Source of the DNA: a phage
Direction: 5' to 3' (one strand)
DNA: 64,000 nucleotides
Sequence record: PZ534534.1
Shown here: positions 35,629-49,961 of the stretch, in pieces
How the letters are laid out: every line of letters begins with the position of its first letter
Position numbering within the stretch: the first letter of the stretch is position 1
The notes under the pieces: generated by a model
What the model saw: the letters and a program-made list of their open reading frames with translations, nothing else
What the model was told of the DNA's origin: nothing
Database searches by the model: none
Position numbers and translations under genes: made by a program

Positions 35629-35631
35629 TAC

Positions 35632-36341: not shown

Positions 36342-36633
36342 AAACATCACCCCAGCAGGGTTTTTAAAAGTATACCGTGAACTGCTATATACTACAGAGG
36401 ACAGTGTTCTAGAGTATCCAGAATATCTTTTGCTGTATAAGTATCTGCAGGAGGCTGGTGAAAATCTGCCAGTTAGTGCAGAAGGTGGTCCAAACTGGAT
36501 ATACAGCGCATGGAGAAAGGTTGACATTCTCCCAGACCCAGGTAAAGATATGGTAGTTTGGCAGCTTATCAACAACATCGGGATTCCAATCTTTGATGAA
36601 GCTGTTAAAATCTATTTTGAACTTGACGATTAA
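36331..36633 (+). CDS. hypothetical protein (100 aa)
   Basis: ATG after AGGAGA RBS; 11-nt overlap with upstream gene. Confidence 0.45.
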   Translation: MKTENITPAGFLKVYRELLYTTEDSVLEYPEYLLLYKYLQEAGENLPVSAEGGPNWIYSAWRKVDILPDPGKDMVVWQLINNIGIPIFDEAVKIYFELDD

Positions 36634-36650
36634 TATCAGGAGACCTTAAG

Positions 36651-36896
36651 ATGGCTGAAGCAGTTGCTCGCGCAGGACAGAAAGTACGTTGTGTGGAAGT
36701 AGGTTTTGGTGGCAAAGGGTGTCAAAACTTGACTCAAGGTAAGGAATACGCTGTTATTTCTGGTGGTGGCGACGAGAGTATTGTGTTCGAGGACCACATC
36801 CTGGATGCTGAAAACTTTGAAATCTTTGACGACGATGGGGATCCGATCACCTGCCTGCTAGACGGGAATTGGGGAACTTTTGAAGTGATTGGCTAA
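36651..36896 (+). CDS. hypothetical small protein (81 aa)
   Basis: GGAG RBS; DDDGDPITC motif loosely related to family 2. Confidence 0.5.
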   Translation: MAEAVARAGQKVRCVEVGFGGKGCQNLTQGKEYAVISGGGDESIVFEDHILDAENFEIFDDDGDPITCLLDGNWGTFEVIG

Positions 36897-36979
36897 CAAA
36901 TACCTATTGTAATTTGCAGAAGGGGATGCTAAAATAGTGTCTCCTTCTATGTTGTTCAAATAAAATCGGAGATTCCATA

Positions 36980-37345
36980 ATGGAACAAATGAACGATCAA
37001 ACGTCGGTTGCAATGAACGAGCAAGAACAACCTCAAGAATTTTTCTTAGGGTTAAGTAAAGATCAAGTGTCTCTTTTGCTAGTGCTTTCTTCTTTCATGG
37101 GAAGACTTCAGGAGCTCACACAACAACCGGAGGCTGAACAATTATTTCAGGCTCTGCGTGAAGAAGAAAAATATCGTCGTTTGGACTATGCCTTAGGTTG
37201 GGTAGCTCAACAACGAGATATGCTAATGGCCCTCTCTGGGACTACAAGTTTTGCAATGGGGCTGTTGGCTCAAGTTCAGGACAAATTAATTCAAGCAGGG
37301 TTTGCACATACGGCAAACACTAACGAAGAACAAGGAGACAAATAA
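36980..37345 (+). CDS. hypothetical protein (121 aa)
   Basis: GGAG RBS; Gln-rich. Confidence 0.5.
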   Translation: MEQMNDQTSVAMNEQEQPQEFFLGLSKDQVSLLLVLSSFMGRLQELTQQPEAEQLFQALREEEKYRRLDYALGWVAQQRDMLMALSGTTSFAMGLLAQVQDKLIQAGFAHTANTNEEQGDK

Positions 37346-38571
37346 TGAGCGTTATTCAACAATTCGCTAACCCGATGAATCCGCGTGAAACTGTTTTACT
37401 GGCTCACGGCATGATTAAACGTGTCAGCATCAAGCCTATCAAAGGTGCTGATCCTACAACAGGTATTAAAACCACTGTGTGGCAAGGTAAGAAAATTGAA
37501 TCCAGCCACACCATCTCTTTACTGATTTCTGAACTGGATTCCTCTGATAACCTGCTTCAAGGTGGTGAAGAAGTTTGGATCAGCATGGGTGATAAGCTGC
37601 TTAAACCTGGTCATCAAGACTCTGTCTCTGTTAAAATTGATGACAAGTGGGAAACCGTAACGCCGGGATGGATCGTAAATATCCCTTTGAAGGCAAACGA
37701 GCATAACGGTAAGACCTATTACAAAGGCTCACTGGCTAAGATGGTCAAGCTGGGTGCAGGAGAGGCTCCAGCAGCGACTCAGCAGCAAAAACAGCAACAA
37801 GGTGCACAATCACAAGGCCAGAAGCAGAAACCTCAGCAGAATGCCAATCAGGACGTTTTACGCATCTATGGCGATGTGACTCAGATTGTTGGCAACGTGG
37901 TTACTGTTAATGACCACAAGATTGGCGAAGGTGCTATGGTTGTAACTGATGAGCAGCTTAAAGACCTGGTGGTAGGTGGTCGTGTTGCAGCCATTGTTGA
38001 CAAAGACACCGGAAACATTATCAGTGGTTTCAAAGCCTATCCCCCTAAGGCAGAGAACGGCACTCAAGGCTCTGGTGGCAAGCGTAAATCCTCTTACGAC
38101 CCTATTGGTGTGGAGACGGGACATAGCATCAACGCGTTGCAAATCATCCTGGATCGCGGGTTTAAGGTAGACGACCCACTAGGTGTGGCTAAAACACTGC
38201 ACGTAGTCACCATTGAGCTTAAGAAAGAGTATGCTCAAGCCACCAACCGAACCGAAGATGAAGTAGGTGCCAGTGTCGGTAATGCGGTGTTGAACGCTTG
38301 TCGCCGTATTGACAAGAAAACGAAAGTTGAGGATTTTGCAGCGGCAATTACTGCAGAAGCAAAAGATGTCTTGACTAATCTGGCTGAGCCGTTGTACGAT
38401 TGGATCAAGAACGGTGCTGGGTCCACTGACCATCAAGAACCTCAAGCTGCCAAGCAGGAAGCTGCTCCACAGCAAAACACTATAGACGCTCCTCCTGTAA
38501 ATGATGAGGAAGATGACCCGATGGATCAGAATCCGGCGCAGTATGAGTTCGATGACTCGATCCCTTTCTAA
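37345..38571 (+). CDS. putative ssDNA-binding protein with SSB-type acidic C-terminal tail
   Basis: Ends ...YEFDDSIPF, mimicking bacterial SSB C-terminal tip DDDIPF; Gln/Gly-rich linker QQQKQQQGAQSQGQKQKPQQ; location in replication module. OB fold not verified. Confidence 0.45.
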   Translation: MSVIQQFANPMNPRETVLLAHGMIKRVSIKPIKGADPTTGIKTTVWQGKKIESSHTISLLISELDSSDNLLQGGEEVWISMGDKLLKPGHQDSVSVKIDDKWETVTPGWIVNIPLKANEHNGKTYYKGSLAKMVKLGAGEAPAATQQQKQQQGAQSQGQKQKPQQNANQDVLRIYGDVTQIVGNVVTVNDHKIGEGAMVVTDEQLKDLVVGGRVAAIVDKDTGNIISGFKAYPPKAENGTQGSGGKRKSSYDPIGVETGHSINALQIILDRGFKVDDPLGVAKTLHVVTIELKKEYAQATNRTEDEVGASVGNAVLNACRRIDKKTKVEDFAAAITAEAKDVLTNLAEPLYDWIKNGAGSTDHQEPQAAKQEAAPQQNTIDAPPVNDEEDDPMDQNPAQYEFDDSIPF

Positions 38572-38579
38572 GGTCAGTT

Positions 38580-39158
38580 ATGAAATGCAAACGTTGTGGG
38601 GAGGACAAGGAGGCCTCCGACTTCTATACCAGCAACAAATCAACGTGCAAAGAGTGCTGTAAGAAGGCCAGCAGGGAGGCTGACCAATTTGCTAAAGACT
38701 CTTCAGAAAAAGGTGTAATACGTGTGTTGTACAAGACTCAAAAGTGCAACAGCAAGCAAAGAGGTCACCCTCCTCCGACTTACACCAAAAAAGAGTTTAA
38801 GGAGTGGCTATACCTGAACGGTTACAAAGAGTTGTATGATCAGTGGGTAGCCAGCGGATACGACAAAAGGAAAAAGCCTTCTTGTGACAGGATAGATGAT
38901 TTCAAAGGGTACTCTTTTGATAATATCCGTTTAACGACCTGGGGAGAAAATAAAGACAAGCAGACAGAGGATATTTTGTTACATAGAAGCACCAGCGGTA
39001 GACGGTGCAAAAATGTAAGGAGGTTGGACATGAATGGCAACGTTCTTAAAGAGTGGGTATCCCACAACTCTTGCAGCAGAGAAACCGGAATATATGTTGG
39101 TTACTACATTCATGAAAAAATTCCAGCTCCCGATGGATACCTCTATGAATACTTCTAA
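38580..39158 (+). CDS. putative endonuclease-like protein with N-terminal zinc ribbon
   Basis: N-terminal CxxC...CxxC (CKRCGED...CKECCKK); CDRIDDFKGYSFDNIRL resembles DRID-type His-Me finger motif. Weak. Confidence 0.35.
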   Translation: MKCKRCGEDKEASDFYTSNKSTCKECCKKASREADQFAKDSSEKGVIRVLYKTQKCNSKQRGHPPPTYTKKEFKEWLYLNGYKELYDQWVASGYDKRKKPSCDRIDDFKGYSFDNIRLTTWGENKDKQTEDILLHRSTSGRRCKNVRRLDMNGNVLKEWVSHNSCSRETGIYVGYYIHEKIPAPDGYLYEYF

Positions 39159-39173
39159 CATCTAGTTAACATA

Positions 39174-39203
39174 GCCCTGCCCGAAATGGTGGGGCATTTT
39201 TGT
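39174..39203 (+). terminator. rho-independent terminator (near-identical to 26878 copy)
   Basis: GCCCTGCCCGAAATGGTGGGGC hairpin followed by ATTTTTG. Confidence 0.55.
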
Positions 39204-39220
39204 ATAAGGAGATCTGAAAA

Positions 39221-39637
39221 ATGACATTAGAAGATATCATTGTTAAACCTGAGAACTATGACCAATACAACCTGTCAACTCAATCTGTAGACCTTGGATG
39301 CGCCACAGTCAGTGCATGGCTGGTTAACGGAAAAGAGCTGGATAAATGCTTAGAAGCTCACATGTCTATTAACAAGTTTCTGGATGAAAATACTCACTGG
39401 CTTGAAGGTGCAGGCGTATATGCTTCATGGTTGGAGAGTATGGGATTCGACTACCAATCTGAAGAGGGGTGGTGGAGCTATTTAGCTATCTGCCCAGAGA
39501 CGCTGCAATGCTTCATGAAATATTCTGAAGATTTGGAGTACCGGGCGGTGGTTGATAGTGCTATTGCCCGTTATAGCCGTAAACCTTTTTCCCACGACAT
39601 TAAAACTGTGGAAGAATTTGTTGAAGTTTTCTGTTGA
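39221..39637 (+). CDS. hypothetical protein (138 aa)
   Basis: ORF with AAGGAG RBS. Confidence 0.55.
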   Translation: MTLEDIIVKPENYDQYNLSTQSVDLGCATVSAWLVNGKELDKCLEAHMSINKFLDENTHWLEGAGVYASWLESMGFDYQSEEGWWSYLAICPETLQCFMKYSEDLEYRAVVDSAIARYSRKPFSHDIKTVEEFVEVFC

Positions 39638-39733
39638 CACAAGTTGAAAGGTGTGTAATTATAACTTCATAGAACGGGAGGACGTGATGAACGAAGAAAA
39701 CTGGGATGTATAACTAACAGGAGGCCACTGCCC

Positions 39734-39931
39734 ATGATTTATCGAATCCGTGTAAGAGAAGATGCACCAGGCTGTTACTTTGACTGGCGTGGGTGGTGGT
39801 TTCTCCACCCGATGGATGGACTCACAGATAGAATGCTGGATGCTGCCCTTTATACAGATACCGACATAGAATATAATCTCTATCTGAAGGACGGTATAGA
39901 TAACGGTCTATTTGAAGCAATTCCTGTGTAA
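39734..39931 (+). CDS. hypothetical protein (65 aa)
   Basis: ORF with AGGAGG RBS. Confidence 0.5.
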   Translation: MIYRIRVREDAPGCYFDWRGWWFLHPMDGLTDRMLDAALYTDTDIEYNLYLKDGIDNGLFEAIPV

Positions 39932-39999
39932 GAGACTGTGATAGCCATGTTTTATGATCTTCCTGTAGCACCACCACCTGTTGAACCCGGAGAACTAAG

Positions 40000-40425
40000 A
40001 TGATCTATGAAATGCCAAAACTGATTCGTGACGATGCCCAAAACGCTCACACCATTATTATGGGCAAACGCATGGATATTATTTGTCATAAAGATTTCTG
40101 GGAAGGAAGTTACTTCACAGAGTATTTTGGTAAACTGGACAATGGTCTGCTGATCCAGTTCTACACCGATGCGGAAAACAACATTCCCTGGGAGTTCGAA
40201 ACTGAAGATGTCCATAAACTTTTCACCTTCCTCGGTATTAAGGTTAAGGCCAAGTTTGAAGAAGGTGAGTGCGACGATTGTGGATTTTATGAGGTAACAG
40301 ATTTCTACCTTCCTAGCGGTAAGAACCTTTACTATGAAAGCCACTTCGGTAACTCCAATATGCCACAGTGCTGGACTGAGTTTTTTGAAATTGCGGAAGA
40401 GGAGCTGGCTTACCGTGATTATTGA
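40000..40425 (+). CDS. hypothetical protein (141 aa)
   Basis: ORF in array. Confidence 0.5.
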   Translation: MIYEMPKLIRDDAQNAHTIIMGKRMDIICHKDFWEGSYFTEYFGKLDNGLLIQFYTDAENNIPWEFETEDVHKLFTFLGIKVKAKFEEGECDDCGFYEVTDFYLPSGKNLYYESHFGNSNMPQCWTEFFEIAEEELAYRDY

Positions 40426-40873
40426 TACTGTAGAGGGAGATTTAATCTCCCTTTTTAAGAGTGGTGCTGGTCACCTGATCCACGGTTGTAACTGCTTCCA
40501 CACAATGGGCAAGGGTATAGCAAAACAGATTGCCCGTGAGTTTCCTCAAGCACTGTCAGCCGACAAAGAGACTAGATACGGTTGCCTAAGTAAACTGGGT
40601 GCGTTCTCCCGATGGGAGCACTTATCTCCGATAGGTATTGTCTACGGAATCAATCTATATACCCAGTTCTACCCAGGACCTAATGCTGAGTATTTCTCAA
40701 TCCTGAAAGGCTTTGAGCTAGTCAATGAAGTATTCAGCGGATCGACTTTACCATTCTACATCCCTAAGATCGGGTGCGGCATAGGCGGTTTGAAGTTGGA
40801 ACACGTAGAGGACGTTATTAACCTTGCCACTTTCGACATAGATATTGTCGTGGTGGAGTACAAAAAGTGTTGA
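40415..40873 (+). CDS. macro-domain-like protein (putative ADP-ribose binding/processing)
   Basis: GTG start after GAGGAG; N-terminal VEGDLISLFKSGAGHLIHGCNCFHTMGKGIAKQIAREFP resembles macro-domain core. Not HMM-verified. Confidence 0.45.
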   Translation: MIIDTVEGDLISLFKSGAGHLIHGCNCFHTMGKGIAKQIAREFPQALSADKETRYGCLSKLGAFSRWEHLSPIGIVYGINLYTQFYPGPNAEYFSILKGFELVNEVFSGSTLPFYIPKIGCGIGGLKLEHVEDVINLATFDIDIVVVEYKKC

Positions 40874-40927
40874 CGACCATCTTCTGAGGTGATATAGTTT
40901 CCACGACAACTAAGAGAGGAGAGCACT

Positions 40928-41098
40928 GTGGAGACTAAAATCTTAATTCTTGCTGTGGTAGATACAACCGAAGGAGCTATATTCGAATCTGCAGGAGGGT
41001 ATTTCTACCTACCATACGGAAAAAGAACTTCCGAGCCAAGTAAAGATTCAATCCTCAAAGTGTTCCCGTGTGCTTTCTGGCTGGAGATTTTGGTATAA
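40928..41098 (+). CDS. small hypothetical protein (56 aa), absent from ORF track
   Basis: GTG start after GAGGAG RBS; translated by hand. Confidence 0.25.
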   Translation: METKILILAVVDTTEGAIFESAGGYFYLPYGKRTSEPSKDSILKVFPCAFWLEILV

Positions 41099-41124
41099 GA
41101 TTGCAGAGGATTTGGGAGAGAATT

Positions 41125-41319
41125 ATGAGAAACAAGAAAGAACTTTACTCCGGTGAGTGGATCAACGATCAACAGGTGGGAGAGGTAACCTGCTTCCGAT
41201 GTTTTACCAGGTACAATCTTAAAACTGCACCAAAAAGTGTTCCAAAGACTGACGGTTACTACATAAAAGAACCTCATTGCCCAAAATGTAAATGCCGATT
41301 GTACTGGAGCAATCTGTAA
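41125..41319 (+). CDS. small zinc-ribbon protein (64 aa)
   Basis: ATG after GGGAGAG; CFRCF...CPKCKC four-Cys pattern. Confidence 0.5.
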   Translation: MRNKKELYSGEWINDQQVGEVTCFRCFTRYNLKTAPKSVPKTDGYYIKEPHCPKCKCRLYWSNL

Positions 41320-41323
41320 GAGG

Positions 41324-41352
41324 TTGACATCTGAAAACTGCAGTGTATAATA
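41324..41352 (+). promoter_or_regulatory. consensus sigma70 promoter (TTGACA-17-TATAAT)
   Basis: Perfect hexamers read directly upstream of 41383 gene. Confidence 0.65.
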
Positions 41353-41382
41353 TACGCATAAACTAACAGAGGGTGATGTATT

Positions 41383-41574
41383 ATGGTAATTTTTAACCGG
41401 GATGGTATCATAGTTAGACAGCACCCGTTCCTTGAATACTATCAAATTGAGCAATGGTGCTACGGGGATTGCAGTCACTCCTATGGGCAAAGTTGGGGAT
41501 ATCGTGCAGTTTTTGAATCCACAGACCTTGACAAAGTAAGACAGAAAGTTTTAGAACTTATTAACAACAAGTGA
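41383..41574 (+). CDS. hypothetical protein (63 aa)
   Basis: ORF downstream of consensus promoter, GAGGG RBS. Confidence 0.5.
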   Translation: MVIFNRDGIIVRQHPFLEYYQIEQWCYGDCSHSYGQSWGYRAVFESTDLDKVRQKVLELINNK

Positions 41575-41584
41575 GTATCGTGCC

Positions 41585-41917
41585 ATGGTAACATTGGAAA
41601 GACGTAAAGCTATCGCCGCCACACTGGCAGACATCTTTTGGGATTGCAACTTAAAAGATACCCGAAATTGTGGCGCATCTGTAGATGTATTATTCCCACG
41701 GCCTACTATTGTTGCAATGGGCAACCTGCTCGATGTGGTATATGGAGCATGGGACAAGGAAGGTGGATTCTATATCTGGCAACCTGACTACGGGACTTGG
41801 AAAGAGGTTAGTGGTTCTTCGGACTTCACTCCTGCAGTGGCTAAAATGGATGGCTGGAAAATCTATGTCGGTAACGACATGGAACTGAAAGGCGAAATTG
41901 TTTACTGGTTACCTTAA
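41585..41917 (+). CDS. hypothetical protein (110 aa)
   Basis: ORF in array. Confidence 0.5.
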   Translation: MVTLERRKAIAATLADIFWDCNLKDTRNCGASVDVLFPRPTIVAMGNLLDVVYGAWDKEGGFYIWQPDYGTWKEVSGSSDFTPAVAKMDGWKIYVGNDMELKGEIVYWLP

Positions 41918-41938
41918 GAAAGTCCAGGAGATAAAGTT

Positions 41939-42184
41939 ATGAACAAAGGGTGGACATTTGTAGACGGCGTTAAAAACATGCCTCTAGGAAAGTATATTGT
42001 AGCCATGGCAGATGAGAATGGCAAGGTTGATTTCGGAGTTTGCGAGGTTGTTCTTGCAGGATCTGGTGACTATGCTCACAAAACTGGGATAATTAACGGT
42101 CATTTCTACTTTGATTACAACCCTGTTGTGGCGTATATGGCTATGCCAGAGTTCGAGCTCCCAAAGGAAGGTGCAGATGTTTAA
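41939..42184 (+). CDS. hypothetical protein (81 aa)
   Basis: AGGAGA RBS. Confidence 0.5.
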   Translation: MNKGWTFVDGVKNMPLGKYIVAMADENGKVDFGVCEVVLAGSGDYAHKTGIINGHFYFDYNPVVAYMAMPEFELPKEGADV

Positions 42185-42374
42185 GCTTAAATCTGCATGG
42201 AACATCGCTGTGGGGGACGAGATCCGTATCCCAGGTGGAAAGACCATTATGAAAATATCTCGTATCGAGTACGAAGGTGATCGTGTATTTCATATCTTTG
42301 CAGAAGATGGTCGAGAAATTTATATACAGGCAGGCTCTCACATCTATATTCGTAAGAAAGGGGAGGACAAATGA
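42177..42374 (+). CDS. hypothetical protein (65 aa)
   Basis: ATG after AAGGAAGG overlapping upstream stop (track start 42111 in same frame). Confidence 0.45.
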   Translation: MFKLKSAWNIAVGDEIRIPGGKTIMKISRIEYEGDRVFHIFAEDGREIYIQAGSHIYIRKKGEDK

Positions 42375-42700
42375 CAGAGATCATCATTTCAACTGCAGGG
42401 TATGTATTCCTGACAATCATTGCGCTGGCTATTCTGGTGGCGGTGTATGGATTTGTTATCCTTCCTATTCTTGAGACATTTAGTTTGTGTCGGTGTTGGA
42501 GAAAAGCTTACGGTCCACAACCATGGAAGGACTGGCCCCACCTGGTGCGCTTAGCGTTCTCTTATGCTTACGATCACTCCAGTAGTGCATGCATAACCGG
42601 ATACCACGCCCACAACTGGAGCTGGGAAGGGTTGAGGAAATGGAATGTTACAAAGACCATACCTCTGCGCATGTACAAACCTAAAAACAAAGACAACTGA
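42371..42700 (+). CDS. membrane protein (109 aa)
   Basis: N-terminal hydrophobic segment IIISTAGYVFLTIIALAILVAVYGFVILPIL; GGGGAGG RBS. Confidence 0.5.
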   Translation: MTEIIISTAGYVFLTIIALAILVAVYGFVILPILETFSLCRCWRKAYGPQPWKDWPHLVRLAFSYAYDHSSSACITGYHAHNWSWEGLRKWNVTKTIPLRMYKPKNKDN

Positions 42701-42724
42701 TACTTGAAAATTCCTGGCATATCA

Positions 42725-43200
42725 AGTATAAGGGGGATTTCTAAAATGGATTTCCTCCTTTTGATATTTCACCGGGCTGGATATTTTAAAATTCTTAGAA
42801 AATCAGAAAATGGATCGAAAACTAAAATGGATTTTTCAGAGTAGGCGCGACAAGCTGAATAGCTCATCCTATCGTTTGCACCATATTCCAGACCACCATT
42901 ATAGATTTCCCACACATGCTAACCTCCCTCTACTAGAACTTCCTCCACTTACCCTTGACCTTCTATGGTAACAATCTAACCACTATCTTGAAGTTGCGGT
43001 GCAGCTTTCCAGGTACTCGATCTACTTTTCATTCCAGGGCTTGGATTTTCTGAAAATTTTTCTCGATAAATTTCTCAGTACTCGATCTGTTTTTCGTTTT
43101 CTGAATCGGATTTTCTGGAAATCGTTCCGGATCTCGACCTGAAATTTTTGGGGACGAAATCTATTTTTCGTTTTCAGAAATGGATTTTTAAAATTTCTAT
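42725..43200. repeat. iteron-like direct-repeat region (GGATTTTC[T/G]GAAA and TACTCGATCT...TTTTCGTTTTC units)
   Basis: At least six GGATTT(T/C)-containing units plus duplicated TACTCGATCT and TTTTCGTTTTC blocks in AT-rich gene-free DNA, read directly. Confidence 0.5.
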
Positions 43201-43665
43201 ATGGGAATATTTTATGGGGCACTGTTTTATAGGAAATTGTTACGGAGGGTAATTAGCATGCTAATTAAATTTATTAAATGCGAGGGATTCTTATTTAGAA
43301 TTTTGAATGATAATTATTCTCGTTTGCAGAATAACGGGCAGGCCCGGTGATTGTCTCCCGGCCCCTGCTGCCCCGGCTTGTTATTATAGTATCACACAGG
43401 ACAAAGAAGGCAAGGATTTTTTGCATAAATTTTTAAATGATAATGATAACCGTTCTCATTTTATGAAGCGCCCATCCCCGGTGGTTGTCTCCCCCGTCAC
43501 CGGTGCCTGCCGTCCTTTCGATAGGTATATTATGCCGCCTGGCGGGGCCGCTGTCAACACTTTTCAAAAAATTTTTCTAACCTGATGCGCTAACCGTTGC
43601 AACCTGGCGGGGCCAGCCTGGCAGGTCCGCACTATAAAGTAAACAGCTACAGAAGAGGTACAAAA

Positions 43666-43842
43666 ATGAAAGGTAATGCTACTCGCCTGGGAAATGTAGT
43701 GATTAATGATACGGAAGCTATCGCCCTGGTTGAAAAGGTTATGGCGGGAGCGTTGGAACATAAAGAAGAGTACGAAAAAAAATGGTGGTTAACCTGGCGG
43801 GGGGCGGCAGGTGGATTCTATCATAAAAATAATTTAAAATAG
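43666..43842 (+). CDS. small early protein (58 aa)
   Basis: ATG after AGAAGAGG RBS (track start 43597 lies in GC-rich repeat). Confidence 0.45.
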   Translation: MKGNATRLGNVVINDTEAIALVEKVMAGALEHKEEYEKKWWLTWRGAAGGFYHKNNLK

Positions 43843-43844
43843 TC

Positions 43845-43874
43845 GTTGACAACAAGGTTAATCATGGTATTATT
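43845..43874 (+). promoter_or_regulatory. sigma70-type promoter (TTGACA-18-TATTAT)
   Basis: Read directly; track ORF start 43846 falls inside this promoter. Confidence 0.5.
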
Positions 43875-43923
43875 ACCCTACAAGGTGAACAACACCGCAC
43901 TAACCAGTAAAGAGGATAAATTT

Positions 43924-44121
43924 ATGAACGCATACGGGATCAAAGTACGTCGCAACACTCGCCAGGTGGTCACCAATCAAGTGATTTGCCGGGTGGATGT
44001 AACCATTAACAACGGGCAAGGCCTTTATAAATTTCGTCGCGGTCATAGCTATACCCTGCAACAGCTTGATCGTTGCGCCCTGACAAAAGGACAGATCAAC
44101 CACTGGTTTAATAAAAAATAA
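43924..44121 (+). CDS. small early protein (65 aa)
   Basis: ATG after AAGAGGA RBS downstream of promoter. Confidence 0.5.
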   Translation: MNAYGIKVRRNTRQVVTNQVICRVDVTINNGQGLYKFRRGHSYTLQQLDRCALTKGQINHWFNKK

Positions 44122-44124
44122 GTA

Positions 44125-44153
44125 TTGACATATAGTCCGACACCAAATACACT
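44125..44153 (+). promoter_or_regulatory. sigma70-type promoter (TTGACA-17-TACACT)
   Basis: Read directly upstream of 44186 gene. Confidence 0.5.
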
Positions 44154-44185
44154 AAAAGCACAAAAGACACTAAGAGGATAAAATC

Positions 44186-44584
44186 ATGAAAACCACTACC
44201 TTTAATTTTGATAATGCGGACTTTTCTTTTTCTGATGTCAAGAACTGCCGCCGTGATCGTGGATTTTACAAGGCTTATAATCTGGTGGGCCTGGACGATG
44301 ACAATAATTTGCACGAAGTAGCTGAGATCCGGTATTATGCCGCCGCCAGCGGGAACACTCACTACTGCGTGTTTTGGATTCACGACAACAAGAACAATAA
44401 GTACGGTTATACTGGCGGCAAGGCGAGCGGTCACGGTTACGATAAAGCTAACGCAGCACTTGAGGGCGCATTAAATGCTATGGGGATCACTGCCGACGGC
44501 TGGATCTACGAAGAAGAGTTTTTGTCGGCACTTGCTGACCACCTGGGCTATAAAAAACACATTGTAACATGTGCCCACGAATAA
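44186..44584 (+). CDS. early protein (132 aa)
   Basis: AAGAGGA RBS. Confidence 0.55.
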   Translation: MKTTTFNFDNADFSFSDVKNCRRDRGFYKAYNLVGLDDDNNLHEVAEIRYYAAASGNTHYCVFWIHDNKNNKYGYTGGKASGHGYDKANAALEGALNAMGITADGWIYEEEFLSALADHLGYKKHIVTCAHE

Positions 44585-44668
44585 AAAATTATTGACACGC
44601 TGCAAAATTCAAGTAAACTATACACAAAAGGCGGGAATGTTTCCCGCCAACACAAAGGAAAAAAGATC

Positions 44669-45064
44669 ATGAATAAGAACGTACGCCGCATCATGAACGA
44701 ACTGGCAAACGATGAAAAAATTATTGATATGCATTTGGTCAACATTTGCCACCGTTGTGTAACATACAACAACCGCGCCGCGAAAGCGCGTGAGATGAAC
44801 GCAAAAGGCACCTTAAAGCCCTTTCAGGTGGTTGTAAAATCTATAACTAGCGCAGCAGGCCAGGCGCATGACCACAACAACGAGAGCGCTAATATTGATC
44901 CGTCTTACGTAATGAAACGGATCCGGACTTGCAAGAATAAAGAGCAGGTGTATAACGTCATAGATTGGCTGGACTCCCTGGGCGATGTGGTTTACAATAG
45001 GTTTTCTGCAGCTATTGAGATTCAGTTAGACAGGTTGGACGGGAAAGTACTGAAAACTTACTGA
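44669..45064 (+). CDS. early protein (131 aa)
   Basis: 5' leader hairpin GCGGGAA-TGT-TTCCCGC then ACACAAAGGA RBS. Confidence 0.55.
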   Translation: MNKNVRRIMNELANDEKIIDMHLVNICHRCVTYNNRAAKAREMNAKGTLKPFQVVVKSITSAAGQAHDHNNESANIDPSYVMKRIRTCKNKEQVYNVIDWLDSLGDVVYNRFSAAIEIQLDRLDGKVLKTY

Positions 45065-45065
45065 G

Positions 45066-45111
45066 TTTATTTTTAGATGGCCTTGACTCCAGGGCCATCA
45101 ATAAAGTAAAC
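45066..45111 (+). repeat. conserved about 46-bp regulatory element, copy 1 (UP-like A/T tract + GATGGCC-TTGACTCCA-GGCCATC palindrome + AATAAAGTAAAC)
   Basis: Near-identical copies at 45688 and 49405; palindrome contains TTGACT. Confidence 0.6.
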
Positions 45112-45144
45112 TAACCACAGTTGAGCGGAAAGGGGGGCTTAAAG

Positions 45145-45264
45145 ATGAGTACTACACGCCAGCACACAAAGGTAACTATTATCGTTTGCATCATTGGGTA
45201 CATCCTGGCGCAAATGTTGATGGGTAGCGCCAACGGTGTCGCAAAATTTTTCTTAAACTTTTAA
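45145..45264 (+). CDS. small hydrophobic peptide (39 aa), absent from ORF track
   Basis: ATG after AAAGGGGGG RBS; IIVCIIGYILAQMLMG hydrophobic core; translated by hand. Confidence 0.35.
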   Translation: MSTTRQHTKVTIIVCIIGYILAQMLMGSANGVAKFFLNF

Positions 45265-45292
45265 TTGACAAGCTAACTTAAATCGATATAAT
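45265..45292 (+). promoter_or_regulatory. sigma70-type promoter (TTGACA-16-TATAAT)
   Basis: Read directly; followed by AAACGGGAAAACTTCCC leader hairpin. Confidence 0.55.
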
Positions 45293-45343
45293 AAGCACAT
45301 AAACGGGAAAACTTCCCAGAATACACAAAAGGAGAAAAACACC

Positions 45344-45685
45344 ATGACTACTATGACCGCCGCAGAAAAAGCTATGCAGATCGCTGAACTGAAAAAACAG
45401 ATCGCAGACCTTGAGAATAAGATCGATAACTTTGAAATCGACGAGGACAAGTACGACGAAAACTATGATGAATGGTTAGACGAGATCTACGGCGAAATTA
45501 TGATCGGAAACATTTCTTTTCTTCCGTCGCGTATCCTCAAGGAGTTAGATCCTATCGCTTACCGCTGCGGATTTAGCGACTACATCGACAGCCTGGATAT
45601 TGAGGACGATGAAGAATACCAGGAATTGCAGACAGAGCTGGAAGAAATGAAAGAAGAGCTTTCAGAGCTGGAAGAAAACGAGTAA
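45344..45685 (+). CDS. acidic coiled-coil early protein (113 aa)
   Basis: AAAGGAGAAAAAC RBS; heptad-like Glu/Leu-rich sequence. Confidence 0.55.
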   Translation: MTTMTAAEKAMQIAELKKQIADLENKIDNFEIDEDKYDENYDEWLDEIYGEIMIGNISFLPSRILKELDPIAYRCGFSDYIDSLDIEDDEEYQELQTELEEMKEELSELEENE

Positions 45686-45687
45686 AA

Positions 45688-45733
45688 TTTATTTTTAGAT
45701 GGCCTTGACTCCAGGGCCATCAATAAAGTAAAC
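45688..45733 (+). repeat. conserved about 46-bp regulatory element, copy 2
   Basis: Identical core to copy 1. Confidence 0.6.
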
Positions 45734-45772
45734 TTTACACTGTTAACACTGAACTAATGAGGAGTTAAAACC

Positions 45773-46018
45773 ATGGCAGCACTAATCACAAAATATTATG
45801 CGCCCACCAACACCAAAAGCGCCCGTATCATGGTAAAAGGCTTCGGACGTAAAAAGGTTTACACCTGGGATTATGCCTTAGACACGGAAGACAACTACAC
45901 CAACGCGATGACCGATTTTATTAATGATCTGAACACGCGGATCTTGACAAATTATAAAATTACCGATATTGCCTATATAGGGGAAGGCGGGATCTGTTTT
46001 GTCGGTATCGTCAAATAA
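45773..46018 (+). CDS. early protein (81 aa)
   Basis: TIR GGAGTTAAAACCATGGC identical to that of 50019 gene. Confidence 0.55.
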   Translation: MAALITKYYAPTNTKSARIMVKGFGRKKVYTWDYALDTEDNYTNAMTDFINDLNTRILTNYKITDIAYIGEGGICFVGIVK

Positions 46019-46093
46019 GCTGTTTTTTCGGTGGTCCTGGTAGCAGGGCCATCTATAAAGACAGTTTATCAACACAATGAAAGGAGAAAGTAC

Positions 46094-46447
46094 ATGATCA
46101 GCGGGGCAAGTTTTATTATTGGCGCTATTGCTACGGCTTTAATTGTAAACAAGATCCAATCTAAAAACGAAAAAGAGAGCAACGCGCTCACAGAATACCC
46201 ATTTTGGGTATTCAACGACAATGAAGACTACATTATCAAGTACAAGAATGAGAAGGGCGACCAGGTAACACCGCGACCGATCCCGGCTTACAAAATGCAG
46301 GAAACACTATACCGCCTAAAGGCTGGGGGCGCAAAAATTGTAGACTTTTGGGGATACGATCACACAGATCAGGAAGTTATAAAGCGCCGTATCCGGGCTA
46401 TTCAGGCCAATATTGAAGTTAGCAAGGGGGGAATATATGAAAATTAA
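46094..46447 (+). CDS. membrane-anchored early protein (117 aa)
   Basis: ATG after AAGGAGAAAG; N-terminal TM helix ISGASFIIGAIATALIV (track start 46031 lies in upstream palindrome). Confidence 0.5.
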   Translation: MISGASFIIGAIATALIVNKIQSKNEKESNALTEYPFWVFNDNEDYIIKYKNEKGDQVTPRPIPAYKMQETLYRLKAGGAKIVDFWGYDHTDQEVIKRRIRAIQANIEVSKGGIYEN

Positions 46448-46634
46448 TTTCGAGAAAATTGTAAAGCGCCCTCATGATTCCGAAGAGCTGCCAGAACGCC
46501 GCCAGCGTAACAATAAACTGAATAAGCCAAAAAGGTTTGGGAAGATCTGGCGTAATCATTATGATCGTAAATTGCCCGGCCTACTTTTGGAACGTGAACG
46601 ACAGGCAGAACGATACCGCCATAAAGACAAATAA
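46437..46634 (+). CDS. small basic early protein (65 aa)
   Basis: ATG after AAGGGGGG; Arg/Lys-rich. Confidence 0.45.
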   Translation: MKINFEKIVKRPHDSEELPERRQRNNKLNKPKRFGKIWRNHYDRKLPGLLLERERQAERYRHKDK

Positions 46635-46641
46635 CAACCAA

Positions 46642-46672
46642 CGCCCCGCCATTGTGCGGGGCTTTTTATTTC
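46642..46672 (+). terminator. rho-independent terminator
   Basis: GCCCCGC-cattgt-GCGGGGC hairpin followed by TTTTTATTT. Confidence 0.7.
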
Positions 46673-46792
46673 TATCCTACGAATAGCGCCCCTGGTTGGC
46701 CCTGTAAGCGCCAAAAAGGCCCCCACCTATGCAATCGCCCCCTTTAACCTGAAAACATCGCCCAAGGCCGTTTTATGGCGTTAAAAATATCA

Positions 46793-46820
46793 TTGACATC
46801 GTCAACAGGTTAGCTATACT
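46793..46820 (+). promoter_or_regulatory. sigma70-type promoter (TTGACA-16-TATACT)
   Basis: Read directly. Confidence 0.55.
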
Positions 46821-46852
46821 AACCACATCAAAGAGAGAAAGGAGTAAACGCC

Positions 46853-47113
46853 ATGCGTAAATTAAAAAATTTTGATAAAGTTGATGTTGTCCTGAATAAT
46901 TTTTACTACTGCAACAACAAGGCTATTTGGTGGCGTGATAGTTCCACCGATAAAGTCAAGGCGCGCTTTCTCCAGGGGCACTGGCAAGGCCGCCCAGTGA
47001 TTAAAATCATGGGGCAATTGGTAGCGTTTAAAAATTGCCGCCGTGTTGATGACGTTGAGGAGATTTTAAACATTTTGCGCCACAATAATTTAAAAAATAG
47101 TGTTGACAAGTAA
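46853..47113 (+). CDS. early protein (86 aa)
   Basis: AAAGGAG RBS. Confidence 0.55.
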   Translation: MRKLKNFDKVDVVLNNFYYCNNKAIWWRDSSTDKVKARFLQGHWQGRPVIKIMGQLVAFKNCRRVDDVEEILNILRHNNLKNSVDK

Positions 47114-47129
47114 ATCTTGATAAGTATAC
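47102..47129 (+). promoter_or_regulatory. sigma70-type promoter (TTGACA-16-TATACT) overlapping end of upstream gene
   Basis: Read directly; followed by AAACGGGAAAACTTCCCG leader hairpin. Confidence 0.55.
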
Positions 47130-47187
47130 TTAAACACGTAAACGGGAAAACTTCCCGCCACTAACAAAGAAAACAGGAGAAAATATC

Positions 47188-47811
47188 ATGACCACCGTTA
47201 ACATTACCACAGGTTACAATTTATCTTTCGACGTGCTGACCGACGAACAAAAAGAAAAAGCCATTGAAATGGTACGCGAAAGAGAAGAACACAGCGGGGA
47301 TGACTTTTTTGCAGAAAGTGTAATTGAACACTACAAAGAATATATCTTTCCAGAGTACGGCCTTGAAGATACCGAAGTACATTGGTCCGGCTTTTGGTGC
47401 CAGGGTGACGGCGCTTCAATCAGTGCTGAAAACGTGGATTTAGAAAAATTTTTGCGTAAAGTAAAGGCCCTGACCAAGTTCCGATCAATTCGTCACTTGT
47501 TCGGCACAATGCACGATGGCGAGTTATCAGCCAGTGTTGAACGCGACAAGTACAGCCATTACAGCCATGAAAACACTGTAAGCGGATACATTGATACCAC
47601 CTGGCTAGATCTGACCGCCAAACAAGAAAACAAAGTGGAAGACCTGGAAGAGCTGATCACCGAGACGGTACGGGAGCTATCCCGCAAGGTTTACGTAGAC
47701 CTGGAGGGGGCCTATCTTGAACAATTCACTACCGAAAACCTGATCGGCCTTATCGAGGCCAATGATTGGCGGTTTGATGTGGATGAAGATGGCGAGATGA
47801 CTTTTTCATAA
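47188..47811 (+). CDS. early protein (207 aa)
   Basis: ACAGGAGAAAA RBS; acidic. Confidence 0.6.
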   Translation: MTTVNITTGYNLSFDVLTDEQKEKAIEMVREREEHSGDDFFAESVIEHYKEYIFPEYGLEDTEVHWSGFWCQGDGASISAENVDLEKFLRKVKALTKFRSIRHLFGTMHDGELSASVERDKYSHYSHENTVSGYIDTTWLDLTAKQENKVEDLEELITETVRELSRKVYVDLEGAYLEQFTTENLIGLIEANDWRFDVDEDGEMTFS

Positions 47812-47901
47812 ATAAAGTGTTGCAATAACCTAAAAACCTGCTATATTAAAACTCAAGGGGGCAAGACGTTTGCCCCCACACAAAACAAAGAGGAAAACAT
47901 C

Positions 47902-48282
47902 ATGAAAAACACTACTAAAGCTATTGACACCGTTATGTTTAACCTGGTTACCTTTCGCGAGGATATGAAAGATCTTCCGCGTGAAACAGTGTGCGACCAT
48001 ATCGAAAACTATCGCAAACTAATCAAAGAGTTGCCTTTAAAACGTGATCAGTATGCGGCTAACGCCATGCTTAATGCCATGATCAAAAAGATGATCCAGT
48101 GTGATTTAACTCTAGCCTATGATTATGCGGGTGGTCGTTTTGCAGTATACAATCAGCCCGTGCCCGGTATGAGCACCACCGAAGAATTGCACGCGCTCAA
48201 TCTAAAACAAGACGTGTGGGATAGTATGCCTCGCGTGGTGGTATGGGTAGAAAGCGGAAAGATTTACGGCGATAATTTTTAA
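47902..48282 (+). CDS. early protein (126 aa)
   Basis: Leader hairpin GGGGGCAAGACGTTTGCCCCC + ACACAAAACAAAGAGGAAAAC RBS. Confidence 0.55.
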   Translation: MKNTTKAIDTVMFNLVTFREDMKDLPRETVCDHIENYRKLIKELPLKRDQYAANAMLNAMIKKMIQCDLTLAYDYAGGRFAVYNQPVPGMSTTEELHALNLKQDVWDSMPRVVVWVESGKIYGDNF

Positions 48283-48291
48283 TCAGGTAAC

Positions 48292-48316
48292 AGGCGGCAT
48301 ATTTGCCGCCTTATTG
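48292..48316 (+). terminator. rho-independent terminator
   Basis: GGCGGCA-tat-TGCCGCC hairpin followed by TTATTGTT. Confidence 0.6.
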
Positions 48317-48346
48317 TTAATCAGAACTGTAAAAGAGGTACATAGA

Positions 48347-48718
48347 ATGGAATTTATTATTTTGGCTGTATTGGTTGCCTTGTTTAACGCCTGGATCGCT
48401 GGCAAGATGGGAAGATCCGCCTTTTTATGGTTTATTATATCTATTTTCCTGGGGGTGGTTGCAACTATTGTATTGGTTATCCTTGCAATTGTTGACAAGG
48501 GGAATAATAGAAAGGGTAAAGTATTTTCAGACCTGTACGACGCTCAAACGTTTGTCAACGCCTATTATAGTGATCTTCCAGTCTCCCTACGTTGCAGCCT
48601 TGCACAACAGGTTTTCGATGAAGCTAAAACCAGAGATCACGCCCATGAGATTTGTTTAACTGAGGCGGATCGCTTATTTGAGAGGAATAGAAAATATGTG
48701 GGCCAGCCGTTTAAATAA
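48347..48718 (+). CDS. membrane protein (123 aa, two predicted TM segments)
   Basis: ATG after AAAAGAGG; MEFIILAVLVALFNAWIAG and FLWFIISIFLGVVATIVLVILAIV hydrophobic segments. Confidence 0.5.
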   Translation: MEFIILAVLVALFNAWIAGKMGRSAFLWFIISIFLGVVATIVLVILAIVDKGNNRKGKVFSDLYDAQTFVNAYYSDLPVSLRCSLAQQVFDEAKTRDHAHEICLTEADRLFERNRKYVGQPFK

Positions 48719-48937
48719 TACCACGTTAATTAATCCATTTAGTGAAGATTTGAGGCCAGCCGCCTGGCGGGATGGATTCAATAATGAAAGCTTTATTTTC
48801 AGGCCTGATCTTAAGGAATTTTATAACAATGGATCGAACAACGACAGAGATAATTTTTCTTGTAATGTGCGTGGTGATAATACTCCTGGGGGCCATTGCA
48901 AACCACGTCACTACTAACAGGAGGAAAGGGGGAGACG

Positions 48938-49057
48938 ATGACACCCAAGGATAAGCCCCGCACCGATAAGGCGCGCCGTGTTATGGTATGGCTGGAGATC
49001 ATCGCCCTTGAAATATTGTTAGGCGTAGGGATGTATTTTATCGCTGTACGCACCTGA
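48938..49057 (+). CDS. small membrane peptide (39 aa), absent from ORF track
   Basis: ATG after AGGAGGAAAGGGGGAG RBS; C-terminal TM WLEIIALEILLGVGMYFIAV; followed by terminator. Confidence 0.4.
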   Translation: MTPKDKPRTDKARRVMVWLEIIALEILLGVGMYFIAVRT

Positions 49058-49061
49058 TAAC

Positions 49062-49090
49062 GGCCCCCGATCCCTGGGGGCCTAACTTTT
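49062..49090 (+). terminator. rho-independent terminator
   Basis: GGCCCCC-gatccct-GGGGGCC hairpin followed by TAACTTTTC. Confidence 0.55.
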
Positions 49091-49113
49091 CAAAAAATTT
49101 TTCTTCCGGGGTG

Positions 49114-49141
49114 TTGCAATCCGGTCCAGAATATGGATAAT
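49114..49141 (+). promoter_or_regulatory. sigma70-type promoter with extended -10 (TTGCAA-16-TGGATAAT)
   Basis: Read directly; same AATATGGATAATA block recurs at 49951. Confidence 0.5.
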
Positions 49142-49201
49142 AACAATCAACGGGGAGACACTCCCCCACCACATAGACAAAGTTCCAAAAGGAGAAACAA
49201 A

Positions 49202-49402
49202 ATGAGCAACAATATCCGCGTTATTAACTTCAAAAAAGAAGAAAAAATTGCTGTGCTGGTTGATGGTCAAGAAATATTCAAGGGGTATTATGAAGATCAT
49301 CAGGTGGCGATCAGTATTACCCGCGTGATTGGTTATCATAATTTCTACCCCCAAGGCGCTGAGGCAGCAGTTAAACGAATCAAAGAGATTGTAGGCCTGT
49401 AA
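49202..49402 (+). CDS. small early protein (66 aa)
   Basis: ATG after AAAGGAGAAAC (track start 49133 upstream in same frame). Confidence 0.5.
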   Translation: MSNNIRVINFKKEEKIAVLVDGQEIFKGYYEDHQVAISITRVIGYHNFYPQGAEAAVKRIKEIVGL

Positions 49403-49404
49403 AA

Positions 49405-49450
49405 TTTATTTTTAGATGGTCTTGACTCCAGGACCATCAATAAAGTAAAT
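49405..49450 (+). repeat. conserved about 46-bp regulatory element, copy 3 (compensatory variant GATGGTC...GACCATC)
   Basis: Same element as copies 1 and 2, with paired substitutions that preserve the inverted repeat. Confidence 0.6.
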
Positions 49451-49493
49451 TTAAACCCTGTTAAAATAATCAGTGCAAAAAGGAGCAATGATC

Positions 49494-49793
49494 ATGTTTA
49501 TACCCGCCAATAATCTTTATTTCTTTGATGGTCAGATCGTAGACGGCGTGGAAGTTGAGATCACTGGATGTCAAGGCGGCCAGGTAATGATCTTCCGCAA
49601 TAGTGCATTTAACGATCAATTCATTACAATGACCATGGAAGTCAAAAAGCTGGACGATAAGAAGACACTCATTGACTATTCCGTGAAAGATCATCCAGAC
49701 TACCACATGATCTATGGTGATTTGTGCATTGTTGACCGTGACAAGGTGGGCGGCATTGTGATCGCTATTGTGAACGATGTTTTCTCTGAATAA
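49494..49793 (+). CDS. early protein (99 aa)
   Basis: ATG after AAAAGGAG. Confidence 0.5.
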   Translation: MFIPANNLYFFDGQIVDGVEVEITGCQGGQVMIFRNSAFNDQFITMTMEVKKLDDKKTLIDYSVKDHPDYHMIYGDLCIVDRDKVGGIVIAIVNDVFSE

Positions 49794-49933
49794 TTCCAGC
49801 AAATGATGCAAAATAAGGCCCATGGCAGGGCCTGCAGCGATATAATCACATAAAGGCTATGCGGTTGCATGGCCTTTATTATTTTGGCGCTACAGCGGCC
49901 CCCAAGGCGCTTAAAAAATTTTTAAAGAAGTAC

Positions 49934-49961
49934 TTGCATCAAGCCCTACAATATGGATAAT
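49934..49961 (+). promoter_or_regulatory. sigma70-type promoter with extended -10 (TTGCAT-16-TGGATAAT)
   Basis: Read directly upstream of 50019 gene. Confidence 0.5.

Follow-up and report, generated by a model that had tools for sequence, protein, structure and literature searches.

In iteron origins such as lambda ori with its O protein, pSC101, P1 oriR and the Rep-iteron plasmids, direct repeats lie on one strand, at a single locus and in a sequence specific to the lineage. The primary replication origin of phage T7 consists of promoters followed by an AT-rich stretch. In phage T5, the untranslated "Repeat Region 3" contains the mapped stop of first-step DNA transfer, near position 9618, and DnaA boxes are the only sites named in it (bioRxiv 10.1101/866236). 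Here, we analyzed a set of direct repeats in a gene-free, AT-rich region of a 64,000-nt stretch of phage DNA (record PZ534534.1; hereafter, the window). An earlier note, made from the letters of the window, had likened these repeats to initiator-binding iterons of plasmid and phage origins or to tandem operator sites. We found a three-copy array shared with related phages, and tentatively read it as the core of a replication origin.

Structure and conservation of the repeat array

Judged by its nucleotide matches, the window is from Vequintavirus, an rV5-like myovirus of Escherichia coli. Positions 42300-43700 were 99.9% identical (blastn) to Escherichia phages naswa, magaca and EmilHeitz, and nearly all of the 117 phage records matching this segment were Vequintavirus (rV5-like myoviruses, ~137 kb).

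The four GGATTT units listed in the earlier note are all present (42735-42755, 43043-43061, 43108-43126 and 43182-43200). GGATTT occurs six times on the plus strand in 42700-43300, where an even spread predicts 0.4 copies on both strands together, and the Poisson probability of at least six same-strand copies in 536 bp is ~4e-8. The repeats are not a product of chance. The duplicated two-part block that had also been proposed stood in part: each half is duplicated (TACTCGATCT at 43014 and 43079; TTTTCGTTTTC at 43091 and 43165), but the two occur together only in the middle unit. The underlying repeat, as recovered by a repeat search (families D1 and D2), is a set of three degenerate units 65-75 bp apart. 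They have a 36-nt conserved core of the pattern GGTaCTCGATC-N3-TTTTC-N11-CG[G/T]ATT, starting at 43012, 43077 and 43152, and each core is followed by an A/T tract (Table 1). The third unit gave a weak nhmmer match (43159-43186) and is near-invariant in nine Vequintaviruses. Further upstream, in a second repeat cluster (island 1), half-units lie at 42738-42753 and 42819-42834 and GATATTT motifs at 42763 and 42780; the short element TTTCnnAAATGGATTT is present four times (family D3).

When the core profile was run against the 64 kb with nhmmer, the three units were its sole matches. A profile built from other genera, without any Vequintavirus sequence, served as a non-circular test of specificity. 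It recovered the units at 43078 (E=0.0015) and 43012 (E=0.005), and the rest of the 64 kb never fell below E=3. With three units and two half-units, all on the plus strand and at the sole such locus in the 64 kb, the array has the three or more direct repeats by which iterons are recognized.

A sensitive blastn search with the gap that holds the repeats gave nucleotide matches in other genera and even in another subfamily, always in DNA that is unannotated there. We compared the syntenic gaps of PVP-SE1 (Seunavirus), CR3, KaOmega and phiTE (Certrevirus), Mydo and KPP-1 (Mydovirus), Serratia phage ChuuTotoro, W70, and ukendt (Phapecoctavirus). From left to right, the common plan is GATATTT motifs with short half-units, a variable spacer, three tandem units, 19-bp palindromes (one to four, in most cases at 29-bp intervals), a conserved GC-rich element, and promoters. 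The core in other genera reads GGTnCTCGATC-N3-TTTTC-N11-CGTATT and is followed by an A/T tract such as GAAAAAATTTTT; the window tract GGATTTTCTGAAAATTTTT equals their CGTATTTTTTCT-N9-GAAAAAATTTTT minus the inner spacer.

Three same-strand copies were found at the same position in PVP-SE1, CR3, KaOmega, phiTE, Mydo, KPP-1, ChuuTotoro, a further contig and ~10 IMG/VR contigs. Nearly every rV5-like contig had exactly three copies, with one array per contig (nhmmer). The spacing of the units, 63-78 bp, depends on the genus (74+67, 78+63 and 66+65; ~65+75 in the window), and the span from unit 1 to unit 3 is constant across genera at ~141 bp. The array is conserved across at least six related phage lineages. 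Phages carrying it infect Escherichia, Salmonella, Cronobacter, Klebsiella, Proteus, Serratia and Pectobacterium, and the canonical unit is common to the phages of the six host genera besides Escherichia. Two E. coli phages differ at the equivalent position: W70 bears a variant in four copies (ACTTGAGRGGTTTTTC...), and ukendt bears repeats unrelated to the unit, two or three in number. The island 1 motif GATATTTTAAAATTC is identical in Klebsiella phage KPP-1, and the spacer 42846-43009 is not alignable between genera.

The unit pattern gave scattered single matches and no arrays in 596 Gb of bacterial genomes. Nothing similar to the units beyond chance (E=6) was detected in 5,426 E. coli genomes, and the sole match of the units in a plasmid search was a mis-filed phage genome. 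A derivation of the units from host sites was rejected on these scans. By their distribution, the repeats track phage lineage and not host, and this, together with the lack of bacterial arrays, is the pattern expected for sites that co-evolve with a phage-encoded binding protein. We predict that the units most likely bind a phage protein.

Constraint was assessed in an alignment of nine Vequintaviruses that are 74-97% identical to the window over the aligned 2.2 kb. The block identities (Table 1) point to purifying selection on the repeats as DNA, possibly as RNA. At 93% identity within Vequintavirus, the array surpasses the first early gene (87%).

The array also stands out physically. It has 16 A-tracts per 210 bp (99.8th percentile of the window), with strong 10-11 bp phasing (99.7th percentile), and is probably intrinsically curved, given this density and phasing. 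Its GC content is 34%, and by nearest-neighbour stability the weakest 40-bp duplex in 42000-44500 begins within unit 3, at 43176. The 10-mer TCGATAAATT between units 1 and 2 is invariant in the nine Vequintaviruses and is an exact match to the published high-affinity nucleation motif of H-NS. GATC occurs five to six times in the ~200-bp array of CR3 and Mydo, and most other genera have 8-10 GATC sites per gap versus 4-5 expected.

Table 1. Features of the gap and its surroundings in the window, with conservation in the alignment of nine Vequintaviruses
Feature	Position	Strand	Basis or remark	Mean pairwise identity (%)	Invariant columns (%)
Island 1: half-units TTTCnnAAATGGATTT and GATATTT motifs	42735-42845	+	repeat family D3	86.5	65
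Variable spacer between both repeat clusters	42846-43009	.		74	44
Three-unit array, phased A-tract DNA	43010-43215	+	contains TCGATAAATT at 43063-43072	93.4	81
Unit 1 core GGTACTCGATCTACTTTTCATTCCAGGGCTTGGATT	43012-43047	+	nhmmer, other-genera profile, E=0.005		
Unit 1 A/T tract GGATTTTCTGAAAATTTTT	43043-43061	+	sequence		
Unit 2 core AGTACTCGATCTGTTTTTCGTTTTCTGAATCGGATT	43077-43112	+	nhmmer, other-genera profile, E=0.0015		
Unit 2 A/T tract GGATTTTCTGGAAATCGTT	43108-43126	+	sequence		
Unit 3 core, 5' half diverged (GGACGAAATCTATTTTTCG...), 3' half kept (TTTTCAGAAATGGATT)	43152-43187	+	repeat family D1		
Unit 3 A/T tract GGATTTTTAAAATTTCTAT	43182-43200	+	sequence		
Fur box A and GC-rich element	43301-43400			97.6	94
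Palindrome A AATGATAATTATTCTCGTT	43306-43324	.	16/19 to family palindrome consensus; within block 43301-43400		
GC-rich element GCAGAATAaCGGGCAGG..CGGTGATTGTCTC, copy A	43325-43365	.	75-86% blastn identity to other genera and subfamilies		
Weaker leftward promoter TTGCCT-19-TATAAT	43413 to 43383	-	read by eye		
Second copy and leftward promoter	43401-43565			95	85
Palindrome B	43442-43460	.	Fur-box-like		
Leftward sigma-70-like promoter TTGACA-17-CATAAT	43529-43557	-	11/12 match; faces Fur boxes and units		
First early gene, opening the small-gene cluster (to ~53.65 kb)	43666-43842	+	PHROG 21957, function unknown; annotated in naswa	87	66
Inferred direct terminal repeat, physical end	54680-55138	.	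homology to the annotated 459-bp repeat_region of Gotham		

Gene setting, control sites and genome end

The non-coding gap extends over 42701-43665 and is thus wider than the 42725-43260 marked in the earlier note. Its description as gene-free was borne out: open reading frames (ORFs) inside it translate to low-complexity junk, and the small ORFs annotated there in ten GenBank records differ, use other frames and are mutually inconsistent. A protein-coding reading of the gap was rejected on both grounds. The region is indeed AT-rich (GC content 37.5% versus 43.7% overall, in the lowest 2% of 536-bp windows), and it does lie between a replication module and an early cluster. Upstream, on the plus strand, are a T7 gp4-type primase-helicase (27678-29756) and a PolA-type DNA polymerase (30546-32975), and to the left of the gap on the same strand are rIIA/rIIB, a Dda-like helicase and two DNA methyltransferases; downstream, small genes run from 43666. 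Elements of 45-67 bp are repeated within this early cluster (45066-45112 and 45682-45746), with several matches in the early region of Gotham, where they coincide with predicted promoters; they look like reiterated early promoters. The whole gap is also present, at 91.8% identity, in PLSDB record CP057073.1 (137,565 bp; E. coli, cattle faeces). Although deposited as a plasmid, this record is as large as a Vequintavirus genome and probably represents a phage that was assembled along with its host or that persisted in a carrier state.

Predicted leftward promoters in the right part of the gap point toward the array (Table 1). Positionally equivalent leftward sites are found in CR3, Mydo and PVP-SE1, where promoter-like sites exceed those in shuffled controls, and leftward sigma-70-like sites facing the gene-free array were seen in four genera. 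Judged from this arrangement, the array forms the far end of a composite control region of ~1 kb that also contains predicted Fur operators and promoters pointing inward. Within it, the GC-rich element has a second copy at ~43466-43500. An RNA structure for this element was considered and rejected (RNAalifold -1.9 kcal/mol, essentially no covariation). In Vequintavirus, a module of ~134 bp is tandemly duplicated (43300-43430 versus 43432-43565), each copy with its Fur box, GC-rich element CCCGGTGRTTGTCTCCC and -10-like box; in other genera the module is present once, and a different conserved block comes next. A GC-rich block of ~90-110 nt (CTACCGGCGATCCACCTTCC...GTTAGCCCCGCCTTTTCGCCGTGGGGTGGCG), near-invariant in Seunavirus, Certrevirus, Mydovirus, W70 and Phapecoctavirus and absent from the window, folds on the plus strand into a hairpin that includes G-U pairs, with a U/C-rich tail behind it. 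No Rfam family matched this block, which may represent a small RNA or a terminator-bearing leader. The promoter spacers (43536-43550 and 43600-43625, and in other genera) are GC-rich, partly palindromic and almost always contain CCWGG, a Dcm site, as in TTGACA-GCGGCCCCGCCAGGCGG-CATAAT.

The 19-bp palindromes beside the array form a family with the consensus AATGAGAATCATTCTCATT, and its members match the E. coli Fur consensus at 14-16 of 19 positions in the window and at up to 16 of 19 in relatives. Palindrome A is flanked on the plus strand by the hexamers TTGAAT (-35-like) and CAGAAT (-10-like), and a 19-mer overlapping palindrome B (GATAATGATAACCGTTCTC, 43439-43457) matches the E. coli Fur consensus at 16 of 19 positions. 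Other genera have two to four copies at exactly 29-bp spacing. In related phages such as Mydo, the palindrome finds its best chromosomal match, exact or near-exact over 19-22 nt, directly upstream of E. coli mntH, beside a palindrome that we read as the MntR box. The mntH gene is repressed by Fur and MntR. Since the palindromes match both the Fur consensus and the mntH operator, we read them as predicted operators for host Fur. Like a Fur operator, these adjacent palindromes (as distinct from the units) are 19-bp inverted repeats that match GATAATGATAATCATTATC and overlap a predicted promoter. Of the two ideas in the earlier note, tandem operator sites suit these palindromes, which lie just outside the segment that it described, and suit the units less well.

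Fur-box-like stretches in the window are 43277-43324, 43439-43460, 54977-55013 and 55111-55129, with sites at 54977, 54995 and 55111 inside the terminal repeat. That a strictly virulent phage carries such sites in its early control region and again in its terminal repeat suggests that it is controlled through iron or Fur, or that it titrates Fur. At least 120 viral contigs contain the perfect palindrome. Between the units and the Fur boxes there is also a perfect 16-bp palindrome, AATTAGCATGCTAATT (43251-43266); as substitutions in relatives break its symmetry, it may not be selected as a palindrome.

Vequintaviruses have direct terminal repeats of 458-459 bp (PMC7471380, PMC6563267). With the inferred repeat at 54680-55138, the window spans the junction of the virion DNA ends, and a distance of 11.5-12.4 kb, or ~8.6% of the genome, separates the gap from the inferred left physical end. 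This interval holds nothing but small early-type genes without assigned function, all of them transcribed toward the end. The arrangement in KPP-1, whose 514-bp terminal repeat was mapped by PhageTerm (PMC9862379), is equivalent, with the gap ~8.8 kb (~6%) from the end. A genome terminus or packaging site at the units themselves was rejected, as the Gotham repeat maps ~11.5 kb away and KPP-1 gave a like result. The 1.47 kb at 53664-55138 (36.6% GC), which hold the inferred terminal repeat, are probably the "first" gene-free AT-rich region. GATATTT(G) clusters occur on either side of the boundary of the terminal repeat (55089, 55193, 55339 and 55354) as well as in island 1 (42763 and 42780), in two genera, and TGATATTTGTGGG by the window terminus is identical to the start of the CR3 gap.

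An unforeseen parallel was found in Repeat Region 3 of T5 (AY587007, 9194-10409). At 9473-9636, T5 carries at least five copies of the palindrome family found in the window (DRC/palE-I), followed by phage-specific direct repeats. The T5 copies match the consensus of the phage palindromes at up to 18 of 19 positions and the Fur consensus at 15-16 of 19, and T5 palindrome D (9330-9349) matches a LexA (SOS) box at 19 of 20. Repeat Region 3 thus appears, from these matches, to be built from sites for host transcription factors. The unit profile had no counterpart in T5 1-11500 (best E=1.4). A tblastn search with all T5 left-terminal-repeat proteins, A1, A2 and dmp among them, against the window and six related loci returned HNH fragments only, and no LexA boxes were found in the window gap.

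Weighing the readings of the array

The reading that we rank first, tentatively and with less than even confidence, is that the array is the core of a transcription-activated replication origin for a T7-like replisome. It was placed first since it best explains promoters that point into gene-free, curved and easily melted DNA beside a T7-like module without a recognizable initiator. In this scheme, the units and the half-units of island 1 would be iterons for a phage-encoded DNA-binding protein, with a predicted footprint of GGTACTCGATC...CGGATT, set in curved, easily melted A-tract DNA. Host RNA polymerase would start at the leftward promoters (43557 and ~43413) and read through the Fur operators into the array. 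Transcription, by way of an R-loop or local negative supercoiling, would open the A/T-rich DNA together with the bound phage protein; the gp4-type primase-helicase would then load, and the PolA-type polymerase would extend. Host Fur on the palindromes between promoters and iterons could gate the opening step. The position of the array at the edge of the replication module speaks for such an origin, as does a T7-like replisome (primase-helicase and PolA) whose initiator is not identifiable with Pfam or PHROG. The specificity of the array, its steady copy number and position, the purifying selection on it, its lineage-bound distribution, the curved and easily melted DNA, the GATC sites and the promoter-like sites aimed at it were counted on this side as well.

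Several observations weigh against an origin. As a description, "iteron-like" holds: the repeats are direct, share one strand and one locus, are under purifying selection, keep their position and number across genera, and are lineage-specific. Several hallmarks of a classical origin, however, were looked for and not found. The flanking ORFs had no Pfam or PHROG match to a replication initiator, and the gene directly upstream varies by genus (unknown, HNH or NADAR). Two sets of candidate binders were examined in other genera and set aside: a syntenic acidic protein of ~270 aa upstream of the gap, which belongs to no known family and is absent from the window, and small reverse-strand ORFs, which are mutually non-homologous and likewise absent from the window. 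No consensus for DnaA (TTWTNCACA) or IHF (WATCARNNNNTTR) was found in 42700-43670. The 36-nt core and its spacing of 63-78 bp, out of helical register, differ from iterons of 17-22 bp spaced ~22 bp apart. Nearest-neighbour stability revealed no unwinding element distinctive across genera, and outside Vequintavirus the array is not consistently the regional stability minimum. In five lineages, plus-strand GC skew is ~0.12-0.13 on the left side of the gap and drops to 0.01-0.08 on its right side. For the window, the values are ~0.12 (35000-42700) and ~0.08 (43666-53600; 0.05 in the first 4 kb), with AT skew rising and the coding strand unchanged, and the step recurs in KPP-1, CR3 and two IMG/VR relatives. 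Such a step is opposite to what a bidirectional origin predicts and counts against one, although gene class could equally explain it. The rV5 paper reports that no origin could be located and shows only a "non-coding" box (PMC3606486). Finally, all of the features that support an origin would also fit an element controlling transcription or DNA entry.

After the origin, we rank in falling order of probability the control of early transcription, a T5-like entry boundary, an RNA-level function and a packaging signal. The array may be an upstream control element of early transcription, a possibility on the unlikely side, in which the iterons bind a phage regulator or the curved DNA binds H-NS. 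Together with island 1, it would loop or insulate the promoter cluster at 43300-43660, as a switch of the early operon or a block to read-through from the replication operon. Its place 50-260 bp upstream of a conserved cluster of promoters and Fur operators in every genus fits this, the two repeat clusters with a variable spacer of ~165 bp suggest looping, and the phased A-tracts and the perfect match to the H-NS motif would serve it as well. With both flanking gene blocks on one strand, insulation would be useful. Yet the units neither contain nor overlap a sigma-70-like promoter, and many other promoters of the early cluster lack units, the profile matching nowhere else. A strict 36-nt core with conserved copy number is also unusual for a mere bend or UP-type element, and no regulator gene is conserved beside the array, where the small reverse-strand ORFs vary by genus and are absent from the window. 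Drawn from analogy with T5, and unlikely in our estimate, is a boundary at which injection stops: ~8% of the genome at the left end would enter first, and the gap would mark where entry pauses or passes to a second step. The distance of the gap from the inferred end compares well with the T5 stop at 7.9%, and only small genes of unknown function, transcribed toward that end, intervene. Like the T5 region, the gap spans ~1 kb, is not translated and exceeds the flanking coding DNA in conservation, and the T5 region has the Fur-box palindrome family and specific repeats in matching order. In a 2026 screen, moreover, Vequintaviruses were reported to share with T5-like phages a hypersensitivity to daunorubicin, by which a T5-like phage is arrested once first-step transfer has taken place (PMC13250531). 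Against this boundary, two-step transfer has never been reported for rV5-like phages, homologues of T5 A1, A2 and dmp were not found, the units are without a T5 counterpart, and the DnaA and LexA boxes of T5 are absent from the window gap. The Fur-box link to T5 is not specific, as perfect palindromes are common in viral contigs, and an early cluster of ~10 kb by the genome end is common in phages with terminal repeats.

We consider a function at the RNA level (a small or antisense RNA, an antitoxin mimic like the phiTE pseudo-ToxI, or weak terminators) very improbable. Leftward promoters do face the array, one AT-rich hairpin with a T-run lies at 43144-43181, and in phiTE, a related phage, tandem repeats of 36 nt serve as an RNA decoy (PMC3475682). 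However, the window gap and seven related loci gave no credible Rfam match at a permissive E-value, and ARAGORN found no tRNA. Dyads within the units fall in differing registers between copies and leave the invariant GGTnCTCGATC unpaired, the units are spaced 63-78 bp apart and not head-to-tail, and an arms-race decoy should vary from host to host, the reverse of the conservation seen here. The phiTE decoy itself was excluded as the counterpart of the array: it sits beside phiTE_202, and the phiTE gap is between phiTE_078 and phiTE_079. The best ToxI match in that gap was 20/36, and the units are not head-to-tail repeats of 34-40 nt like those of ToxI. The least probable of all is a packaging signal, with sites for the terminase small subunit like those of lambda cosB or SPP1 pac. 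Three repeats in ~140 bp of bent DNA do resemble the grammar of cosB, and GATATTT(G) motifs occur both in island 1 and beside the terminus; the mapped terminal repeats, however, are 8-12 kb away in two genera, and the unit profile had no significant match near the terminus.

Comparison with known systems

No description of these repeats was found in the searchable literature. Elements of this kind, iterons in a control or origin region, are known; the geometry departs from the classical one, with a 36-nt core, three copies, a constant span of ~141 bp and coupled Fur operators. The rV5-like phages (Vequintavirinae and relatives) are widely used as candidates for therapy and biocontrol. For them, the analysis defines a precise, deletable cis-element of three 36-nt iterons, half-iterons, Fur operators and inward promoters, which is more conserved than the surrounding genes across phages of seven host genera. 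Experimenters who wish to map the origin, pull down the binding protein or engineer the phage, for example with a safe insertion site or a conditional replication switch, thereby gain a defined target.

Compared with iteron origins, the array shares direct repeats confined to one strand and one locus, a lineage-specific sequence, A-tract bending, an excess of GATC, adjoining palindromic operators with a promoter, and replication genes nearby. It differs in its 36-nt core at 63-78 bp spacing, in having no adjacent or enclosing initiator gene that could be found, and in lacking DnaA and IHF boxes. Its neighbouring palindromes are predicted Fur boxes of the host, unrelated in sequence to the iterons, and it has no similarity to plasmids. 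With the primary origin of T7, it has in common a T7-like replisome and two to three conserved promoter-like sites facing gene-free AT-rich DNA, and T7 needs no dedicated initiator. Unlike in T7, these sites are of the host sigma-70 type (no phage RNA polymerase was seen), Fur operators lie in between, and there are iterons, which T7 lacks.

The likeness to T5 Repeat Region 3 may matter more, even as a side observation. Both regions are untranslated, ~1 kb long, conserved in the order of their repeats, ~8% from the left end and adjoined by early or pre-early genes, and in both an array of Fur-box palindromes and then phage-specific direct repeats follow in equal order outward from the genome end. 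The palindrome array is represented at 43306 and 43442 in the window and by two to four copies in other genera. Its position at the inner edge of the terminal ~8% corresponds to ~8.6% in the genus of the window and ~6% in KPP-1, end-first entry being assumed here by analogy. T5 has features of its own (DRD, IRC/IRD with DnaA boxes, and the LexA-box palindrome) that are unrelated to the units, and its 10-kb terminal repeat, nicks and A1/A2 proteins were not seen in the window phage. The stop function has been mapped experimentally in T5 only. Fur-box-like palindromes and a LexA box appear to make up the repeat region around the T5 stop, and the former recur in rV5-like phages at the corresponding genome position. 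A bolder proposal by analogy, which we regard as quite improbable, is that rV5-like phages also enter in two steps, and that the stop signal in both groups consists of Fur boxes and phage-specific repeats ~6-9% from the left end, with Fur arresting or gating entry (in T5, possibly with LexA and DnaA). If true, the nature of the T5 injection-stop signal would be identified, and two-step transfer would not be unique to T5-like phages. The parallel turns an old question about T5 into a hypothesis that involves fur and iron status.

The closest relatives of the palindromes themselves are the Fur operators of Enterobacterales, such as those of mntH and the aerobactin gene iucA. The likeness lies in the consensus match of the window palindromes and in the placement of the 43306 copy between promoter-like hexamers. 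In contrast to those bacterial operators, the palindromes belong to a virulent phage, form arrays with 29-bp spacing and are found again within the terminal repeat.

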